Shown here piece after piece: positions 265 through 6,866 of a DNA stretch of 16,257 bases. Under the pieces are notes generated by a model. That model was not told the DNA's origin, ran no database searches, and saw nothing but the letters and a program-made list of their open reading frames with translations. Source of the DNA: Pseudomonadota bacterium (GTDB lineage Bacteria > Bdellovibrionota_G > JALEGL01 > DATDPG01); assembly GCA_043809315.1 (NCBI GenBank), contig JAZDDX010000014.1, forward strand, positions 1 through 16,257. The letters are read 5' to 3'. The position numbers and the translations under genes were made by a program. How positions within the stretch are numbered: the stretch's first letter is position 1; every line of letters begins with the position of its first letter.

Positions 265-1776
265 ATGAAGAAACTTTGTTGGGGCTTCGTACTCCTCTTA
301 GCGGCGTGTGGGACCCGAGAGAACGGCGTTTCCACGAAGGAGTCCGTTCTGGGCTCCTCTATTATTACGGACGAGCCGACCCCGACCCCAACGGCTACGC
401 CGACCCCAACGGCTACGCCGACCGCGACTCCGAGACCTATGCCCAAGCCCCCCGGTTCAACGCCAACGCCCACACCGACCGCGACACCCCCCCGGACGCC
501 AACCCCCACCCCCACTCCGACACGAACACCCACGGTCACGCCCACTCCGACTCCCACCTCCCCGCCCAGCACGAGCTGCAAGGGCACCCCGCTGGATGGG
601 TTTGTGAGGGTGGCCGGCGGGGACTTGTGCCTGAACGGGAAAGGGTTCTTCTTCGGCTCCACGAACGGCTACGACATGCCGTCGCTCCAGACGTGGAACC
701 CCCCCGCCGTGGACAACCGGTACAACGCGTTCAGCGCGGTGGGAATCGACGCGGTGAGGATGTTCTTCTTCAACGACGGCGGGATGACCTGCGCGGACCC
801 CGTGGACGGGGGCACGATCCAGACCTCTCCGGGCGTTTACAGCGAAAGCGCGCTGCGGGCGTTGGACATCGTGGTCAAGAAGGCCAAGGACCGCGGGATC
901 AAAATCCTGGCCACCTTCACGAACAACCAGAACGACGCAAACGGAGGAATGTGCCGGTATCTCTTGTGGGCGGGCGTCATTTCGAACCCGTCCGAGTACA
1001 ACTGGGACCTGGCCACGCAGTACTACCAGAACGCTTCGATCAAGACGTGGGTGAAGAATTACATGACGATGCTCATGAACCGGACGAACACCCAAACCGG
1101 CATTCCGTACAAGAATGAACCTACGATCATGGCCTGGGAAATCATGAACGAACCGCGCGGCTCCACATGGGCGAATCCGGCGATCGTCCGGGATTGGCTG
1201 CGCGAGATGGCCCAGCACATCAAGAGCGTGGATCCGAAACATTTGGTCACCACGGGCGAAGAGGGATTCGACAACGATCCGCCGGCGTACGATTCCTACA
1301 TCACGACGAATTACATGTGGGCGTTCAACGGAAGCGTGGGGACCAGCTACACGATGAACACGGCGATCCCGGAGATCGATTTCGCGAGCATCCACAACTA
1401 CCAGTACTTCCCGGGGATTGCGAACGACACGACCGCCGGCCGGCACTGGATCCTGGGGCACAACAACATCGCGCGGCGTTTCGGGAAACCGATGTTCATC
1501 GGCGAATACGGCCTCACGACGAACGGCTACGGGGGTGGGCTCTGGTACTATCCGGGCGCCAACTACCAGCCGAAGATCGATGCGTTCTCGAACTGGTGGG
1601 CGCTGATCGAAAGCACGCCGGGGATCTCGGGGGATATGCTGTGGCAGTTCGTGGAAGACGGAAGCCCCTGGTGGCTGGCCTACTCGCCGTCCAACATCTA
1701 CTACACGAGCGACACGCTCATCTGGCCGTTGTTCCAGCTGCACAACGAGAGGATGAAGGCCAAAGCGGGGCCGTAA
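265..1776 (+). CDS. GH5 glycoside hydrolase lipoprotein, probable endo-1,4-beta-mannanase (GH5_7-like), with N-terminal Pro/Thr linker
   Basis: 503-aa ORF. Signal peptide [15 protein letters not shown] carries a lipobox (LAA-C), followed by a (PT)n linker. GH5 motifs: AWEIMNEPR (acid/base Glu), [28 protein letters not shown] (nucleophile Glu), GDMLWQF. Confidence 0.88.
376..566 (+). repeat. Low-complexity Pro/Thr linker, including the 18-bp tandem unit CCGACCCCAACGGCTACG (about 2.3 copies, 382-423)
   Basis: The tandem repeat is directly visible and encodes [14 protein letters not shown]..., typical of carbohydrate-active enzyme linkers. Confidence 0.9.
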
Positions 1777-1845: not shown

Positions 1846-2685
1846 ATGGAATTCATCGGGATCGACATCGGGGCTCTCTTCGTCAAAGCGGTCCGTGTGG
1901 ACCGATCGGGGAAGATCCTTCAGAGCTTCTACGAACGGCACCGCGGCCAACCGGCCGAGGCGTTGGCGGAGGCCTTTGACCGCCTGAGTGTTACCGCAAA
2001 CGACGCCATAGGCCTGACGGGCTGCAACGCCGAGCTCTTCGCCCGGACGCTCGACCTCCCCTACCGCGACGTCACGCTCTGCCAGCTCGATTCCATCCGG
2101 CGGCGGGTCCCCGACGCACGGTACATCATGGATATCGGCGGAGGTTCGGCCACGTTGATCCAGCTCGACGAGCACGGGAAATTCCAGGGATATGCGACCA
2201 ACTCCCTCTGCGCCGCGGGGACGGGGTCGTTTCTCGACGAGCAGGCGGGGCGCCTGGGAATTTCGTACGACGACGCCAAGCACTTCCTCCACAACCCCAA
2301 TCCCCCCACCATCGCCACCCGCTGCGCGGTTTTCGCCAAAAGCGACCTGATCCACCGCCAGCAGGAGGGGTGCAGCCGGATGGATATGTGGTCCGGCCTC
2401 TGCCGCGGGATGACCCGGACGCTTTTGGGAACTCTTTTGAACGGCCGCCCGCTGGACGGCAAGACGGCGGTCATCGGCGGGGTCGCCCTGAACGCGGAGG
2501 TGGTCCGTTGGCTGGAGCATGCCTGGCCCGATCGGATCGCGGTTCCCGAGAACCCCCATTTGATCGCCGCGGCGGGCGCAGCTCTCTTTTGGGGAAAAAA
2601 CCTGCCGAGCCGAACTCGAACGTCGCGGGCGGTTTCCTCGCGCGAGAGCCCACGCCGCGGATGTATCCTTGATCAATCGGGCTAG
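1846..2685 (+). CDS. BadF/BadG/BcrA/BcrD-type (2-hydroxyacyl-CoA dehydratase activator) ATPase domain; probably the truncated first domain of a PlsA/Ger-like multidomain protein
   Basis: ASKHA motifs IGIDIG, DIGGG, CAAGTGSFLDEQAGRLG, RCAVFAKSDLIH, GGVALN and AAGAAL. Recognisable homology ends near 2590, and the last ~33 aa look like read-through to a stop shared with the convergent gene. Confidence 0.85.
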   Translation: MEFIGIDIGALFVKAVRVDRSGKILQSFYERHRGQPAEALAEAFDRLSVTANDAIGLTGCNAELFARTLDLPYRDVTLCQLDSIRRRVPDARYIMDIGGGSATLIQLDEHGKFQGYATNSLCAAGTGSFLDEQAGRLGISYDDAKHFLHNPNPPTIATRCAVFAKSDLIHRQQEGCSRMDMWSGLCRGMTRTLLGTLLNGRPLDGKTAVIGGVALNAEVVRWLEHAWPDRIAVPENPHLIAAAGAALFWGKNLPSRTRTSRAVSSRESPRRGCILDQSG

Positions 2686-4484
2686 CCGCACCCGCAACCG
2701 GAGCCGCAGCCAGACGCTTCCGCCTTTGTTTCCCCCGCGATCGGGAGCGACACCCGTCGTAGCGCGACCGCCTCACCTTCGCTCAACATGGAGGGAGCTT
2801 TTCCGAGATCGTATTCGCCTTTGTACCTATCGAGCGAAACACTGATCGATTCCTCGACCCGATCCCGATACTCGGGGCCGGAATTGTAGGTGCAGAACGG
2901 ATAGATCTTCCCGTCCCGCGCCGAGTAGTGGATCACGCAGCGTTTCACCCGCTCGATGTCGTAGTTGTACGGATCCTGGAAATGCATCCCGGCGATGAAG
3001 AGCGTCGGATAGGCGTTCTTCGTCTGGTGTTCAGGGTTCCCCGAAACCTCTTTGTCTTTGTAGCCGTCGACCACCTTCAGAAGACGGTTGAAAGTGAGTC
3101 CTTTCGGAGCCTTCTTGGAGTTGAAATGACGATGGAGGATGTTCAGCGCTTTTGCTTTCGAAAAGAGCTGGATCCCGAGCGCCTGCCCCCGCTTCTCGTT
3201 TTTCTCCCGGATCTCTCGTTGAAGGAGTTGCACGTCGATCAACGCCTGACGCAGGTTGAAGAACGAATCGAGCGAGACCGCCTCTTCGCGGTTCTCGGGG
3301 TTGACGAAGAGATACGCTCCCGCCCCGCAGTCGGGGTGGCAGGTGACCGTCATGGCGGGCTCGCCGGAAAGGACCTCCGAGAGCTTTGAGAACGGCGAGG
3401 TGCAGCCGAGGGGCAGCCAGCCACCGTTGGCTTGGATCATGCCGTCGGTCTGTTTTTCCGCATCCATTGCCAGGTGGGTCATCGTGTATCTCTTCGCCAG
3501 GCGGTTCGATTCGTTGATCCGTCCCGTAAAGCAGACAGGCTGGAAGGCGATTCCGACGATCACGTCGGAGTTCCGTGTGGCAAATCGGATGATGTCGCCG
3601 ACCTGGTGATCGTTCAGTCCTTTGACCATGGTCGGTACCAGAACGATTTTCAGCCCGACCTTACGCGCGTTCTCGACCACCTTTTTCTTCATCTCGGTGA
3701 CGTTTTCCGCACGCGTCTTGAACGCGACGTCATCGCTGACACCGTCGAATTGCAGGTAAATCGTATTGAGGCCCGACTCTTGAGCCTTTTTCGCGAACGA
3801 AAGGTTCGAGAGGTTCTTGCCGTTCGAGGCGACCTGGATGTGCCAGAACCCCATCTCTTTGGCCATGGCGCAGATCTTGTGGAACTGCGGATGGATCGTC
3901 GGTTCGCCGCCGGAGAACTGGACCACCTTGGCCGGGACCGGTTTCATGTCGCGCAGGTTCTGGAGCATCTTGCGGATCTCGGAGAGTTCCGGCTCGCAGA
4001 CGTAGCCGGCGGCGTTCGCGTTGGCGAAGCAGACGGGGCAGGTCATGTCGCAACGGTTGGTGACGTCGACGTTGGCGAGCGCGGTGTGGCTGTGGTGCAT
4101 GTTGCACAAGCCGCAGTCGGTCAGGCACGACTTGCCGTCGGCGACGATCGGGTTCGAAACCCCCTGTCCGTCGGCCATCCGGTGTGTGAACATGCTCATG
4201 TAGATGTCGACGTCGGGGGAGATCAGCTCCTTGAAGTAGCCGTGGTCTTTGCAGGTCTTGTCCATCCAGACCTTGCCGTCCTCTTCGAACTTTCTCGCTT
4301 GGATGACCTGAATACATTCCGGGCAGAGCGATTCGGTTTCGTACGGGAGAGACCAGGGGATTTCCTTAATTGGGTACCCGGAGTGGGTGGTCTCCGGTTG
4401 ATCGAACCAGTACGGGCGACCCGGATTTGCATCCGGTTGAGTATTCGTTTCAATCTTTCGAGCGACAGCGCCAAACCCAAACAT
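2682..4484 (-). CDS. tes: Radical SAM enzyme of the tetraether synthase Tes / GDGT-MAS (MJ0619) family
   Basis: Motifs in order: rubredoxin-like CPEC...KTCKDHG; auxiliary cluster CLTDCGLC; radical SAM NVDVTNRCDMTCPVCFANAN; FSGGEPT; YLQFDG; FQPVCFTGR; HPDCG; MHFQDPYNYDIERVKRCVIHY...IYPFCTYN. Start moved from TTG 4499 to ATG 4484 because a GGAGG SD lies just upstream; 600 aa. Confidence 0.88.
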   Translation of the reverse strand: MFGFGAVARKIETNTQPDANPGRPYWFDQPETTHSGYPIKEIPWSLPYETESLCPECIQVIQARKFEEDGKVWMDKTCKDHGYFKELISPDVDIYMSMFTHRMADGQGVSNPIVADGKSCLTDCGLCNMHHSHTALANVDVTNRCDMTCPVCFANANAAGYVCEPELSEIRKMLQNLRDMKPVPAKVVQFSGGEPTIHPQFHKICAMAKEMGFWHIQVASNGKNLSNLSFAKKAQESGLNTIYLQFDGVSDDVAFKTRAENVTEMKKKVVENARKVGLKIVLVPTMVKGLNDHQVGDIIRFATRNSDVIVGIAFQPVCFTGRINESNRLAKRYTMTHLAMDAEKQTDGMIQANGGWLPLGCTSPFSKLSEVLSGEPAMTVTCHPDCGAGAYLFVNPENREEAVSLDSFFNLRQALIDVQLLQREIREKNEKRGQALGIQLFSKAKALNILHRHFNSKKAPKGLTFNRLLKVVDGYKDKEVSGNPEHQTKNAYPTLFIAGMHFQDPYNYDIERVKRCVIHYSARDGKIYPFCTYNSGPEYRDRVEESISVSLDRYKGEYDLGKAPSMLSEGEAVALRRVSLPIAGETKAEASGCGSGCGCG

Positions 4485-4524
4485 GACAACAGCCTCCAAA
4501 TGAAGTTAGTTCGCGGCGAACCTG

Positions 4525-4541: not shown

Positions 4542-4628
4542 TTGAGAGCGAGCTTGGGCGCGGGAAGAATCTGATATTGTGGGTGGAATTCGAAGGTTTG
4601 AGTGGAGGAGAAGAAGAAGAAACAGAAA

Positions 4629-4646
4629 ATGCACCACGCGGTGCAT
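4629..4646. promoter_or_regulatory. Palindrome ATGCACC-ACGC-GGTGCAT; candidate upstream activating sequence for a bacterial enhancer-binding protein
   Basis: Perfect 7-bp inverted repeat about 90-105 bp upstream of the sigma-54 site. Resembles the NtrC-type TGCACC-N5-GGTGCA site but with a 4-nt spacer. Confidence 0.55.
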
Positions 4647-4741
4647 CTCCTGGTTAATGTTGTGTTGATAACTACCTGATTACATTAGAAGTCCCCCGTT
4701 TGTTCGTAAGTGTCCGGATTTCTGACGTTTTGGTGCTTTGT

Positions 4742-5053
4742 CTACTCGGGAAAGACGCCCTTGGGCTTGGTGGGACCCGGGGTGTATTCGAAGGCGAACG
4801 ACTCGCAGGAGAGATAGAACGTCGTCTCATTTGCGTCGACGCAGGTCCCCTCGTATCGGATCGAGCCGGTGTTCGAAACACGCGAGAGATTCAGCTTCAT
4901 GCATTGGCTGGCGAAGATCGGGGAGCTCGATCCGCCGCCGGTGCAGGTCATGAGACCTTTCTGATCGGTCAGAATCTTTTCAACGTTCAGCTTCGTCTCG
5001 GCAAACGACGTGGAAGCAAGGACGACTGCGAGCGCGGCGATCCAGTTCTTCAT
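4742..5053 (-). CDS. Small secreted hypothetical protein with four Cys
   Basis: 103 aa with Sec signal peptide MKNWIAALAVVLASTSFA. ATGA overlap with the BMC-T stop (5050-5053) and a purine-rich SD upstream. Confidence 0.7.
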   Translation of the reverse strand: MKNWIAALAVVLASTSFAETKLNVEKILTDQKGLMTCTGGGSSSPIFASQCMKLNLSRVSNTGSIRYEGTCVDANETTFYLSCESFAFEYTPGPTKPKGVFPE

Positions 5054-5691
5054 TTCTTCCCCTCGTTTTCCCGTCCGGTGACGGCGGCGAGCGATGCGTT
5101 CACCGCTTTGGCCGCCTCCTTGATCTCGTCTTCATTCCCCGAAAGATAGAGCCGCCCGAACGCTCCGAACGACATCATCTCGAGCAGCTTGATCGGAGAG
5201 GCCTTCTCCGCCTCGTTCGCGGCGAACGCCGCGTACCCGGCGGGGTGAACCTCCATGATGTAGAACGCTTCCCCCTCGTCGATCAGCTGGCCGTGCCGCA
5301 TCCGGTTGATCAGCATCGTCTGGTGTCCGTCGATATCGGTGATGATCTCGCTCGTCATGACACGCGGCTTGAGTCTGGCGCTCTCATCGAGGCCGAAGTG
5401 TGCGAGGATCGCCGCCCCGGCCTCCCGCACCTGTCCTTGATCAAAGCTGTGCAGTTCGAGAAGCCCGAACTCCCGCTCCACGATCTGCATCGCCGGCGTC
5501 ACGCTCGTTCTCTTGAGCGCGATGTCGGTCACGCGGTTGATCGCGATGCCGGGGGAGATCTCGATGAAGAGAGAAGCTTGTCCTTCTAACGGCTGGAATC
5601 CTTGTGCCACCGTCTGGAGAAACCCGGTCATCTGCGGTTGGAGGATGTCGAGGTAGATGTAAGTGCGAAGGTCGATTCGATCAGCGGCCAT
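5050..5691 (-). CDS. Bacterial microcompartment shell protein, tandem-domain BMC-T (CcmP/CsoS1D/Haliangium BMC-T2-like)
   Basis: Motifs LRTYIYLDILQPQ, EISPGIAINRVTDIALK, VEREFGLLELH, PAGYAAFAANEAEKAS and FGAFGRLYLSG are characteristic of stacked/gated BMC-T trimers. Start is ATG 5691 or GTG 5700. Confidence 0.92.
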   Translation of the reverse strand: MAADRIDLRTYIYLDILQPQMTGFLQTVAQGFQPLEGQASLFIEISPGIAINRVTDIALKRTSVTPAMQIVEREFGLLELHSFDQGQVREAGAAILAHFGLDESARLKPRVMTSEIITDIDGHQTMLINRMRHGQLIDEGEAFYIMEVHPAGYAAFAANEAEKASPIKLLEMMSFGAFGRLYLSGNEDEIKEAAKAVNASLAAVTGRENEGKK

Positions 5692-5700
5692 GTGCGGCAC

Positions 5701-6186
5701 TCAATGTAGCTGGGTTTCCATTTCGCGCAACGCTTCTTTCGCGGGGAGATACTCCGGATCCGCGTGGAGTGCCTTCCGGAGTTCTTCCGTGGCCCGGTTC
5801 AGCATCCCCTTCTTGGCGAAGATCCTTCCGAGGTTGAAGTGGGGGAAACAGTAGCTGTCGTACTTTTTGGCCAGGGTCGCCTTCTCGAGATACGGGATCG
5901 CGTCGTCGTCTTTCCCCAACTCGATCAGATACGCCCCGATGTCGTTCCAGGGGTTCCCGAATTCGGGATCGATGGCGATGGCCCGCTTACACTCGTCGAT
6001 CGCTTCCTGATAGCGCCCCAGAAAACTGTAGGTCCAACCGAGAAACGTGTGCGCCTCCGCCGTCGGCTCGAGCTCGAGCGAACGTTTGTAGAGGCGGACC
6101 GCCTCGTCCAGTTTTCCCTGCATCTGGAGCTGGTACGCCTGGGAAAACCAGTAGCGGGCGTCGATTCGTGTGGAGTGTTCGTTCAT
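5701..6186 (-). CDS. Tetratricopeptide repeat protein (about 4 TPRs)
   Basis: Repeats AEAHTFLGWTYSFLGRYQEAIDECKRAIAIDP, NPWNDIGAYLIELG..AIPYLEKA and HFNLGRIFAKKG..A...LRKAL. ATG 6186 preferred over TTG 6207. Confidence 0.88.
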   Translation of the reverse strand: MNEHSTRIDARYWFSQAYQLQMQGKLDEAVRLYKRSLELEPTAEAHTFLGWTYSFLGRYQEAIDECKRAIAIDPEFGNPWNDIGAYLIELGKDDDAIPYLEKATLAKKYDSYCFPHFNLGRIFAKKGMLNRATEELRKALHADPEYLPAKEALREMETQLH

Positions 6187-6197
6187 CAACGGTCGAG

Positions 6198-6226
6198 CGT
6201 CTATCAATGGGGGGAGGGGGTGTCAA
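6198..6226 (-). promoter_or_regulatory. Putative sigma-70 promoter for the TPR / BMC-T / secreted protein operon
   Basis: Minus strand reads TTGACA-N17-TAGACG with a TGn extended -10. The -35 is perfect and the -10 imperfect. Confidence 0.45.
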
Positions 6227-6262
6227 TCGATCTCCGGGGTTGGCCGGAAGCCGTTTCGTTTG

Positions 6263-6455
6263 TTGGACGAGTCGATTCCCCGCTTCTCCGGCGTCGTCAA
6301 TGTCGAACGGGCGAAGAACCCGATCCTTCTGGCTCGCATGCTTCAGAACGAAGAGGACCGCGTTTTAGAGGGGGAAGGAGCGAGCGCTTTTGCGAAACGG
6401 AAGCGGGTGAAGTCGTTTAATCCGATTACAGAGGAGCGATGGGGGGGGTGGCGAC
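6263..6455 (+). pseudogene. Internal fragment of an isoaspartyl peptidase/L-asparaginase (Ntn-hydrolase) gene
   Basis: RFSGVVNVERAKNPILLARMLQNEEDRVLEGEGASAFAK...NPITEERW matches the family pattern (V..+KNP+..AR......+L.GEGA..FA). No N-terminus and no catalytic Thr region. Confidence 0.65.
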
Positions 6456-6461
6456 AGATCG

Positions 6462-6866
6462 ATCGGGAAGACGTTCCTCGCCGAACAGGATCTGGCTCGG
6501 GCGAAGCGGACATTCTTGGATGGCGTGACGCTTTTTCCCGAGCATCCGCTGATGGTGGCCTATCTCGGGTTCGTGACCCTTCTTTGGGCCGCTCAAAATG
6601 GTGAGAAGGACGGGAGAGAGTACGACCGGGCGAAGAAGGCGGTGATCAAGGCGAGATAGTTGCTTTCGGACGACGCCGACGCCCACTACCTGGTGGCCAA
6701 AGTGTTCATCCTGGAAGGGGAGGAGGAGAAGGCCCGTCAGGCGCTGAAACGGACCCTGACGCTCGACCCGCACCACCCCACCGCCTCGATCGATCTCAAG
6801 AAGAGCGAGGAGCGATCCGAACTGAAATCGGCGAGCACCTCTTCGATCTTCAGGTGGAAGGCGTAG
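6462..6866 (+). pseudogene. C-terminal fragment of a TPR protein gene with an in-frame TAG at 6657-6659
   Basis: One frame reads IGKTFLAEQDLARAKRTFLDGVTLFPEHPLMVAYLG...AKKAVIKAR*LLSDDADAHYLVAKVFILEGEEEKARQALKRTLTLDPHHPTA. TPR periodicity continues across the stop; no credible start. Confidence 0.65.

Follow-up and report, generated by a model that had tools for sequence, protein, structure and literature searches.

A complete tetraether synthase homologue encoded by a Bdellovibrionota-labelled bacterium and its possible role in the formation of membrane-spanning lipids

The DNA analyzed here (the window) is an entire 16,257-bp contig (JAZDDX010000014.1, contig C14) of a metagenome-assembled genome (MAG) whose close relatives are labelled Bdellovibrionota, and it encodes on its minus strand a protein, TesA, that is a full-length member of the tetraether synthase (Tes/GDGT-MAS) family. 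This family assignment is secure. We propose that TesA probably couples the bacterium's own glycerolipids tail-to-tail into membrane-spanning lipids of the branched glycerol dialkyl glycerol tetraether (brGDGT) or iso-diabolic type, a reading that draws on the genes found elsewhere in the host genome.

The TesA open reading frame (ORF) extends from an ATG at position 4484 to a TAG stop at 2682-2684 (minus strand 2682-4484) and specifies 600 residues, numbered here from that ATG; a TTG in the same frame at 4499 could also serve as the start but is less likely to. TesA scored 533.6 bits against the NCBIfam Tes equivalog model NF045702 (cut-off, 450 bits), and 534.1 bits in the scan of its own genome. 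In Pfam, it matched Radical_SAM (PF04055, 80.5 bits) and Zn_ribbon_HMPTM (68.9 bits). The next-best curated family, TrsS (NF045646), shares the zinc ribbon and the radical S-adenosylmethionine (SAM) core with TesA, and an identity as TrsS was rejected because TesA reached only 335.9 bits, below the cut-off of 490. Since TesA passes the Tes equivalog, the NCBI pipeline should name the protein 'tetraether lipid synthase Tes'. The expectation of a first-pass annotation, made from the sequence alone, that automated annotation would return a generic radical SAM protein or pterin methyltransferase was thus not borne out; the only name of a kind other than Tes is Pfam's Zn_ribbon_HMPTM, which presumably reflects an old pterin-methylase annotation. 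The closest solved structure is that of the Methanocaldococcus jannaschii enzyme GDGT-MAS (MJ0619; 7tol_A), to which residues 48-561 of TesA align over residues 23-518 (HMMER E 7e-119) with 38-39% identity.

TesA and MJ0619 share a four-part layout, consisting of a rubredoxin-like site, an N-terminal auxiliary cluster, a radical SAM core, and a C-terminal cluster and lipid domain. For MJ0619, Lloyd et al. (2022; PMC9433317) describe the ligands C9/C12/C33/H36 and C73/C77/C80 plus a conserved histidine, as well as a labile Met439 and Tyr459. In the HMMER alignment, C54/C57/C78/H81 and C120/C124/C127 of TesA fall on the former two sets, respectively, and M500 and Y520 align to residues around Met439 and Tyr459. 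For comparison, 20 bacterial and 23 archaeal Tes sequences, selected from 77 homologue loci plus loci of the host and related genomes, were aligned (43 rows). The full set of 16 ligand and catalytic sites is preserved in 40 rows; no bacterial row is an exception, nor is a second copy from the host. Among these sites, C386, M500, C516, Y520, and C531 are kept in 40-43 rows, and H130 is near-invariant, suggesting that H130 is the 'conserved histidine' of PMC9433317 and the fourth ligand of the auxiliary cluster. The cysteines named as ligands of the C-terminal cluster are putative assignments made from conservation. A motif set of this extent is far beyond chance.

The predicted structure leads to the same family. 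An AlphaFold2 model of TesA, built from the 43-row alignment, reached a mean predicted local distance difference test score (pLDDT) of 84.3 and a predicted TM score (pTM) of 0.86. The top Foldseek matches were the MJ0619 structures 7TOM and 7TOL, with target-normalised TM scores of 0.90/0.92 over 510-520 columns and root-mean-square deviations of 3.1-3.2, and the next fold was MoaA (TMq 0.31).

TesA also differs from MJ0619 at both ends. It carries about 45 extra N-terminal residues with a motif of the bacterial clade, Q-P-x-T-T-x-x-G-x-P-I, and a C-terminal tail that is longer by about 40 residues and ends in CGSGCGCG. Tails of a similar kind, with at least two cysteines in the last 30 residues, were seen in 6 of the 20 bacterial rows and in none of the 23 archaeal rows. 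Besides the window, the loci concerned are L019, L022, L023, L030, and L037, and the sequence of the tail is poorly conserved among them. The tail perhaps binds a metal.

In the homology search, the nearest relatives of TesA (72-76% identity) came from MAGs labelled Bdellovibrionota or Bdellovibrionales. Four of these carry ORFs identical to those of the genomes G003, G005, G008, and G011, which belong to the same family or order as the host genome; identity to the orthologues in the four related genomes is 72-77%. They were followed at about 50% identity by proteins of Bryobacterales/Solibacteraceae (Acidobacteriota), and then by archaeal proteins at 26-41%. A quick tree of 78 rows, from which the duplicates L011, L012, L013, and L015, the window's own locus L001, and the split or truncated rows L016, L017, L033, L042, L086, and L092 were omitted, placed all 29 bacterial rows in one clade with starred support (100*). 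In a more careful tree, computed from the 43-row alignment, a branch with support 100/99 separates the 20 bacterial rows from the others, and TesA groups with four Bdellovibrionota-labelled or related rows at 100/100. The root was not inferred; midpoint rooting puts the bacterial clade beside Thermoplasmata/DHVE2 rows. The proteins of Bryobacterales/Solibacteraceae, which belong to the same all-bacterial clade, share the N-terminal motif with TesA, and some also have a Cys-rich tail, whereas the host of TesA is a Bdellovibrionota-labelled, uncultured organism with a small 2.4-Mb genome.

These results indicate that TesA is a complete Tes homologue, as the first-pass annotation had held: the curated hidden Markov model, the ligands, the fold, and the tree all agree, the four metal-site motifs, the Met of MHF, and the Tyr of CxIHY are all found in order, and TesA falls inside the Tes clade rather than in another radical SAM clade. 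The further claim that the host is bacterial was likewise confirmed within the window by a PBP1C gene (TIGR02073, 739 bits; cut-off, 494), a 1981-residue protein bearing alpha-2-macroglobulin domains, and a CcmP-like tandem bacterial microcompartment (BMC) protein. Tes is not a rarity among bacteria: 456 bacterial homologues were reported together with a proposed brGDGT role (Zeng et al., 2022; PMC8941075), and a Black Sea study of 2025 found homologues in 281 bacterial MAGs, calling the function unconfirmed (PMC11868695).

The host genome (2.42 Mb in 44 contigs; 96% complete, 0.65% contaminated) encodes a second Tes, TesB (G000:C16:58160-59830, minus strand, equivalent to L100:9161-10831), which is 47% identical to TesA and scores 530.7 bits against NF045702. 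Among 17 species genomes examined from the host's phylum-level group in GTDB, 8 have a Tes match at E<=1e-60, 7 of them above the cut-off, and only the host has two full copies. In the careful tree, TesB groups with sequences of G001 and G015 at 100/100, and TesA and TesB are sisters at 94/96, slightly below the threshold for a star. TesB lies tail-to-tail with pgsA (TIGR00560, 128.7 bits versus 109.1) and an unassigned 134-aa ORF. Elsewhere in the group, G005 has a second, weaker Tes/TrsS-like match with an in-frame TGA (G005:C152:211-1542, minus strand), which could be a TrsS-type selenoprotein or a broken gene.

In addition, the host encodes a 1417-aa protein (G000:C19:3281-7534, minus strand) with two BcrAD_BadFG domains and a DUF2229 domain. 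The arrangement corresponds to the 'BBD' core, which is described by Sahonero-Canavesi et al. (PMC13159169) as conserved in alkyl-ether-forming Ger; the C19 protein is predicted to be a fused PlsAR/Ger-type reductase that converts ester to ether lipids. Conversely, the genes of the archaeal diether pathway were not found. In the host genome there were 0 matches to PF01884 (PcrB/GGGPS) and 0 to PF01864 (CarS), and its two UbiA-family genes, both below the DGGGPS cut-offs, resemble MenA and a PRK08238/DPPR-type transferase. The host thus probably lacks the archaeal diether pathway, which is probable rather than proven because the genome is 96% complete. No match to HGD-D (PF06050) was found in the host genome. 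Six other radical SAM genes were scanned and proved to be MoaA-like, SPASM-type, or unassigned, none being lipid-related by name.

The same combination of two Tes homologues and a PlsAR-type gene is reported for the brGDGT producer Solibacter usitatus, for which Halamka et al. (2022; PMC10087280) propose that PlsAR acts first and is followed by one or both Tes homologues. Because the host of TesA is bacterial and no archaeal diether pathway was detected in it, the substrate and product of TesA must differ from those of MJ0619. The absence of that pathway, together with the presence of the PlsAR/Ger-type reductase, suggests that the substrates are most likely the cell's own glycerophospholipids, with acyl and/or alkyl tails, and perhaps phosphatidylglycerol. 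MJ0619 itself bound ester-linked E. coli phosphatidic acid in co-crystals (PMC9433317). The suggestion of the first-pass annotation that the enzyme may make brGDGT-like or diabolic-acid-type lipids, or may couple another substrate, fits this genome, in which a Ger/PlsAR-type gene is present and neither GGGPS nor CarS was found.

The assignment to the family, the intact ligand set, the fold, the sequence conservation, and the gene content of the genome are shown; the mechanism that follows starts from them, and in it the substrate, the product, and the order of steps are conditional. If TesA works like its homologue MJ0619, SAM would be cleaved at the radical SAM cluster, and the resulting 5'-deoxyadenosyl radical would abstract hydrogen from a lipid tail, at its terminal carbon, while a hydrophobic tunnel holds the tail. 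A sulfide of the C-terminal [4Fe-4S] cluster would then carry the tail radical until another SAM activates another tail, after which a C(sp3)-C(sp3) bond would link the two. The expected lipids would span the membrane and be of the iso-diabolic-acid, branched glycerol trialkyl glycerol tetraether (brGTGT), or brGDGT type.

The gene adjoining TesA encodes a stand-alone activase that is convergent with it, the two stop codons overlapping. Residues 1-247 of the activase are 83% identical to the first domain of the C19 reductase (G000:C19:6794-7534; 78.5% identity in DNA). The ratio of nonsynonymous to synonymous substitutions (dN/dS) between the two is 0.11 at a dS of about 1, indicating that the activase is an old duplicate under purifying selection and not a fragment. 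The window activase has only one BcrAD_BadFG domain, in contrast to the two in the Ger/PlsAR core; its sequence marks it as a paralogue of one portion of the reductase, not a reductase in its own right. The start of a second activase copy was also seen at the end of contig G001:C128. A BcrAD match (E<=1e-4) beside Tes was found in 0 of the 25 other bacterial loci with flanks of up to 8 kb (L018-L042), showing that the pairing of activase and Tes is not general in the bacterial Tes clade. A functional link between the two genes is suggestive only.

Several observations weigh against or limit the proposal that TesA couples membrane lipids of the host. Annotation of 82 flanking ORFs in 11 bacterial loci revealed no lipid gene that recurs beside TesA. 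The hydrophobic moment of the helices in the TesA C-domain, which reports on amphipathicity only, did not differ from that of shuffled sequences. No PlsAR/Ger-like match was found in the four TesA-bearing relatives G003, G005, G008, and G011 (G005 being 74% complete), so that ether formation and Tes are not strictly linked. The host has two sets of 2-oxoacid dehydrogenase E1 alpha/beta genes, one of them after lipoamide dehydrogenase; both score under the pyruvate dehydrogenase cut-offs and neither is assignable to branched-chain 2-oxoacid dehydrogenase, and iso-branched fatty acids may or may not be made by the host. According to PMC13159169, the diabolic and iso-diabolic acid producers screened there outside Acidobacteria had no Tes, and 3 of 14 iso-diabolic-acid-producing acidobacteria had one, so that Tes, missing in most of the producers screened, is not the general bacterial route; Mss was identified there instead. 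Bacterial Tes proteins are bioinformatic candidates (PMC11868695 and PMC13459092); the latter, a 2026 review, still lists them as bioinformatic detections. Among bacterial enzymes that couple tails, only Mss of Thermotoga and Thermoanaerobacter has experimental support (PMC13159169 and PMC13459092); like TesA it is a radical SAM enzyme, it couples two fatty-acyl tails, and PMC13159169 describes it as just remotely related to Tes.

Other readings were considered. TesA may be a true Tes-family enzyme that acts on another substrate, such as a protein-bound or specialised lipid or another hydrophobic metabolite, or that performs intramolecular macrocyclisation only, in which case no membrane-spanning lipid would be formed. 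The candidate status of bacterial Tes, the missing lipid neighbourhood, and the clade-variable Cys-rich tail would all be compatible with this, and the two paralogues, at 47% identity, could differ in substrate. We nevertheless regard it as rather unlikely, since TesA passes the equivalog cut-off, retains the complete layout of MJ0619 together with the C-terminal domain in which the lipid pockets are formed, clusters with proteins of the order to which the cultured brGDGT producer belongs, and has no Lgt-like gene at its side. It is very unlikely that TesA makes archaeal-type isoprenoid GDGTs or macrocyclic archaeol, with diethers that the cell either makes or acquires from archaeal neighbours or prey. 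The identity to MJ0619 with an identical ligand set is in line with such a product, as are the relatives labelled Bdellovibrionota, a group that includes predators. The absence of PcrB/GGGPS, of CarS, and of a UbiA-family gene above a DGGGPS cut-off argues against it, and according to Zeng et al. (PMC8941075) no bacterium is known to make isoprenoid GDGTs.

The remaining alternative is that TesA is foreign to the organism, as a result of binning or assembly, or is an inactive relic of horizontal transfer. The window is indeed the whole of a short contig of a MAG, and Tes is patchy in the lineage. However, the GC content of the contig (0.595) lies within the range of the other contigs (0.54-0.62), tetratricopeptide repeat (TPR) and BMC genes stand upstream of TesA in the same order in the same-family genome G003 with 61% and 78% identity, and the nearest Tes orthologues come from genomes of the same family and order. 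The adjoining activase, besides its closeness to the C19 gene, is equally close to genes of G001 and G002, the second Tes lies on a 182-kb contig (C16), and every ligand of TesA is intact. This alternative therefore appears highly improbable, and tail-to-tail coupling of the bacterium's own glycerolipids remains the reading that we prefer.

The features of the TesA locus are listed in the table below.

Features of the TesA locus and of related loci (positions refer to the window unless a locus is named)
Feature	Position	Strand	Basis or remark
TesA, bacterial-clade tetraether synthase homologue	2682..4484 (including stop codon)	-	NF045702, 7tol_A, model, tree
Rubredoxin-like site C54-x2-C57 ... 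C78-x2-H81	4242..4325	-	four columns invariant in 43/43 rows
N-terminal auxiliary [4Fe-4S] motif C120-x3-C124-x2-C127 + H130	4095..4127	-	motif reading, alignment
Radical SAM cluster motif C145-x3-C149-x2-C152	4029..4052	-	invariant in 43/43 rows
C-terminal cluster and lipid domain: C386, M500 (MHF), C516, Y520 (C-V-I-H-Y), C531	2892..3329	-	motif reading, alignment; cluster ligands putative
Cys/Gly tail CGSGCGCG (C593, C597, C599)	2685..2708	-	outside the MJ0619-aligned part; model pLDDT < 50
Ribosome-binding site GGAGG	4493..4497	-	8 nt 5' of the TesA ATG; direct sequence reading
Terminator-like hairpin between TesA and upstream genes	4623..4652	-	consensus scan; 13-pair stem, then T run
Stand-alone HgdC/PlsR-type activase ATPase, 279 aa	1846..2685	+	Pfam BcrAD_BadFG 82.1 bits
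CcmP-like tandem-BMC shell protein	5050-5700	-	E 4.6e-81; 271.5 bits, under 340 cut-off
ORF of about 190 aa upstream of TesA in relatives	L018:3939-4505, L019:7175-7747, L021:7223-7795, L020:6906-7736		

The hairpin between TesA and the upstream genes weakly suggests that TesA has its own promoter region; the scan of the region gave 6 such sites compared to 4.0 +/- 1.9 in shuffled sequences, a weak signal. A conserved Tes operon was rejected by flank annotation and tblastn of the window genes, in which only the TPR and BMC genes recurred, and in one same-family genome. Mfd follows TesA in three of four relatives and is absent at that position in the window. Directly upstream of TesA, all four relatives carry an ORF of about 190 aa without a Pfam match, for which tblastn found no match in the host genome.

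The tandem-BMC gene is distant from the main BMC locus of the host, which lies at about 22.9-26.1 kb on contig C15 and comprises BMC-T, BMC-H, and three EutN/CcmL genes. Downstream of the tandem-BMC gene, and overlapping it by 4 nt, is a 103-aa ORF (4742-5053, minus strand) whose product begins like a signal peptide and matched no family. A short ORF that lies between the TPR and QueE genes (6170-6604, plus strand) aligns to positions 81-155 of 309 of the Asparaginase_2 profile only; it may represent a fragment of a gene or a wrongly called frame. A lipoprotein of glycoside hydrolase family GH5 is encoded at 265-1776 (plus strand); a long linker rich in Pro and Thr follows its signal peptide. 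A 16S rRNA gene was not found in the assembled contigs of the host, and the taxonomic label therefore follows that of relatives with identical Tes ORFs.

The brGDGTs are widely used as temperature and pH proxies, and both their producers and the tail-coupling enzyme are unsettled; bacterial Tes is the leading candidate for the coupling step. Bacterial Tes is already known and named in databases. What this locus adds is modest: a further lineage, two paralogues in one genome, and an activase that has been duplicated. The literature searched linked neither Bdellovibrio* to brGDGT nor Bdellovibrionota to tetraether, although the supplements of PMC8941075 and PMC11868695 may list such genomes, and the locus thus adds a lineage that had no brGDGT link in that literature. 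The question is opened no further than it is by the cultured S. usitatus, the present host being itself uncultured. With its two Tes enzymes, single Ger/PlsAR-type reductase, and additional activase, the gene set is minimal and would be convenient for heterologous testing.

Going beyond the coupling reaction itself, one may imagine that this small, subsurface, Bdellovibrionota-labelled lineage makes branched membrane-spanning ether lipids with TesA, TesB, and a single Ger/PlsAR, and that the stand-alone activase is a dedicated ATP-driven donor of low-potential electrons. We consider this fuller scheme unlikely as a whole. Within it, TesA and TesB, anciently duplicated, would perhaps form the first and the second C-C bond or act on different head groups, and the activase could supply electrons to the reductase or to the Tes clusters themselves. 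If the scheme were true, the lineage would be an unrecognized, non-acidobacterial source of branched membrane-spanning ether lipids, made with a compact gene set.

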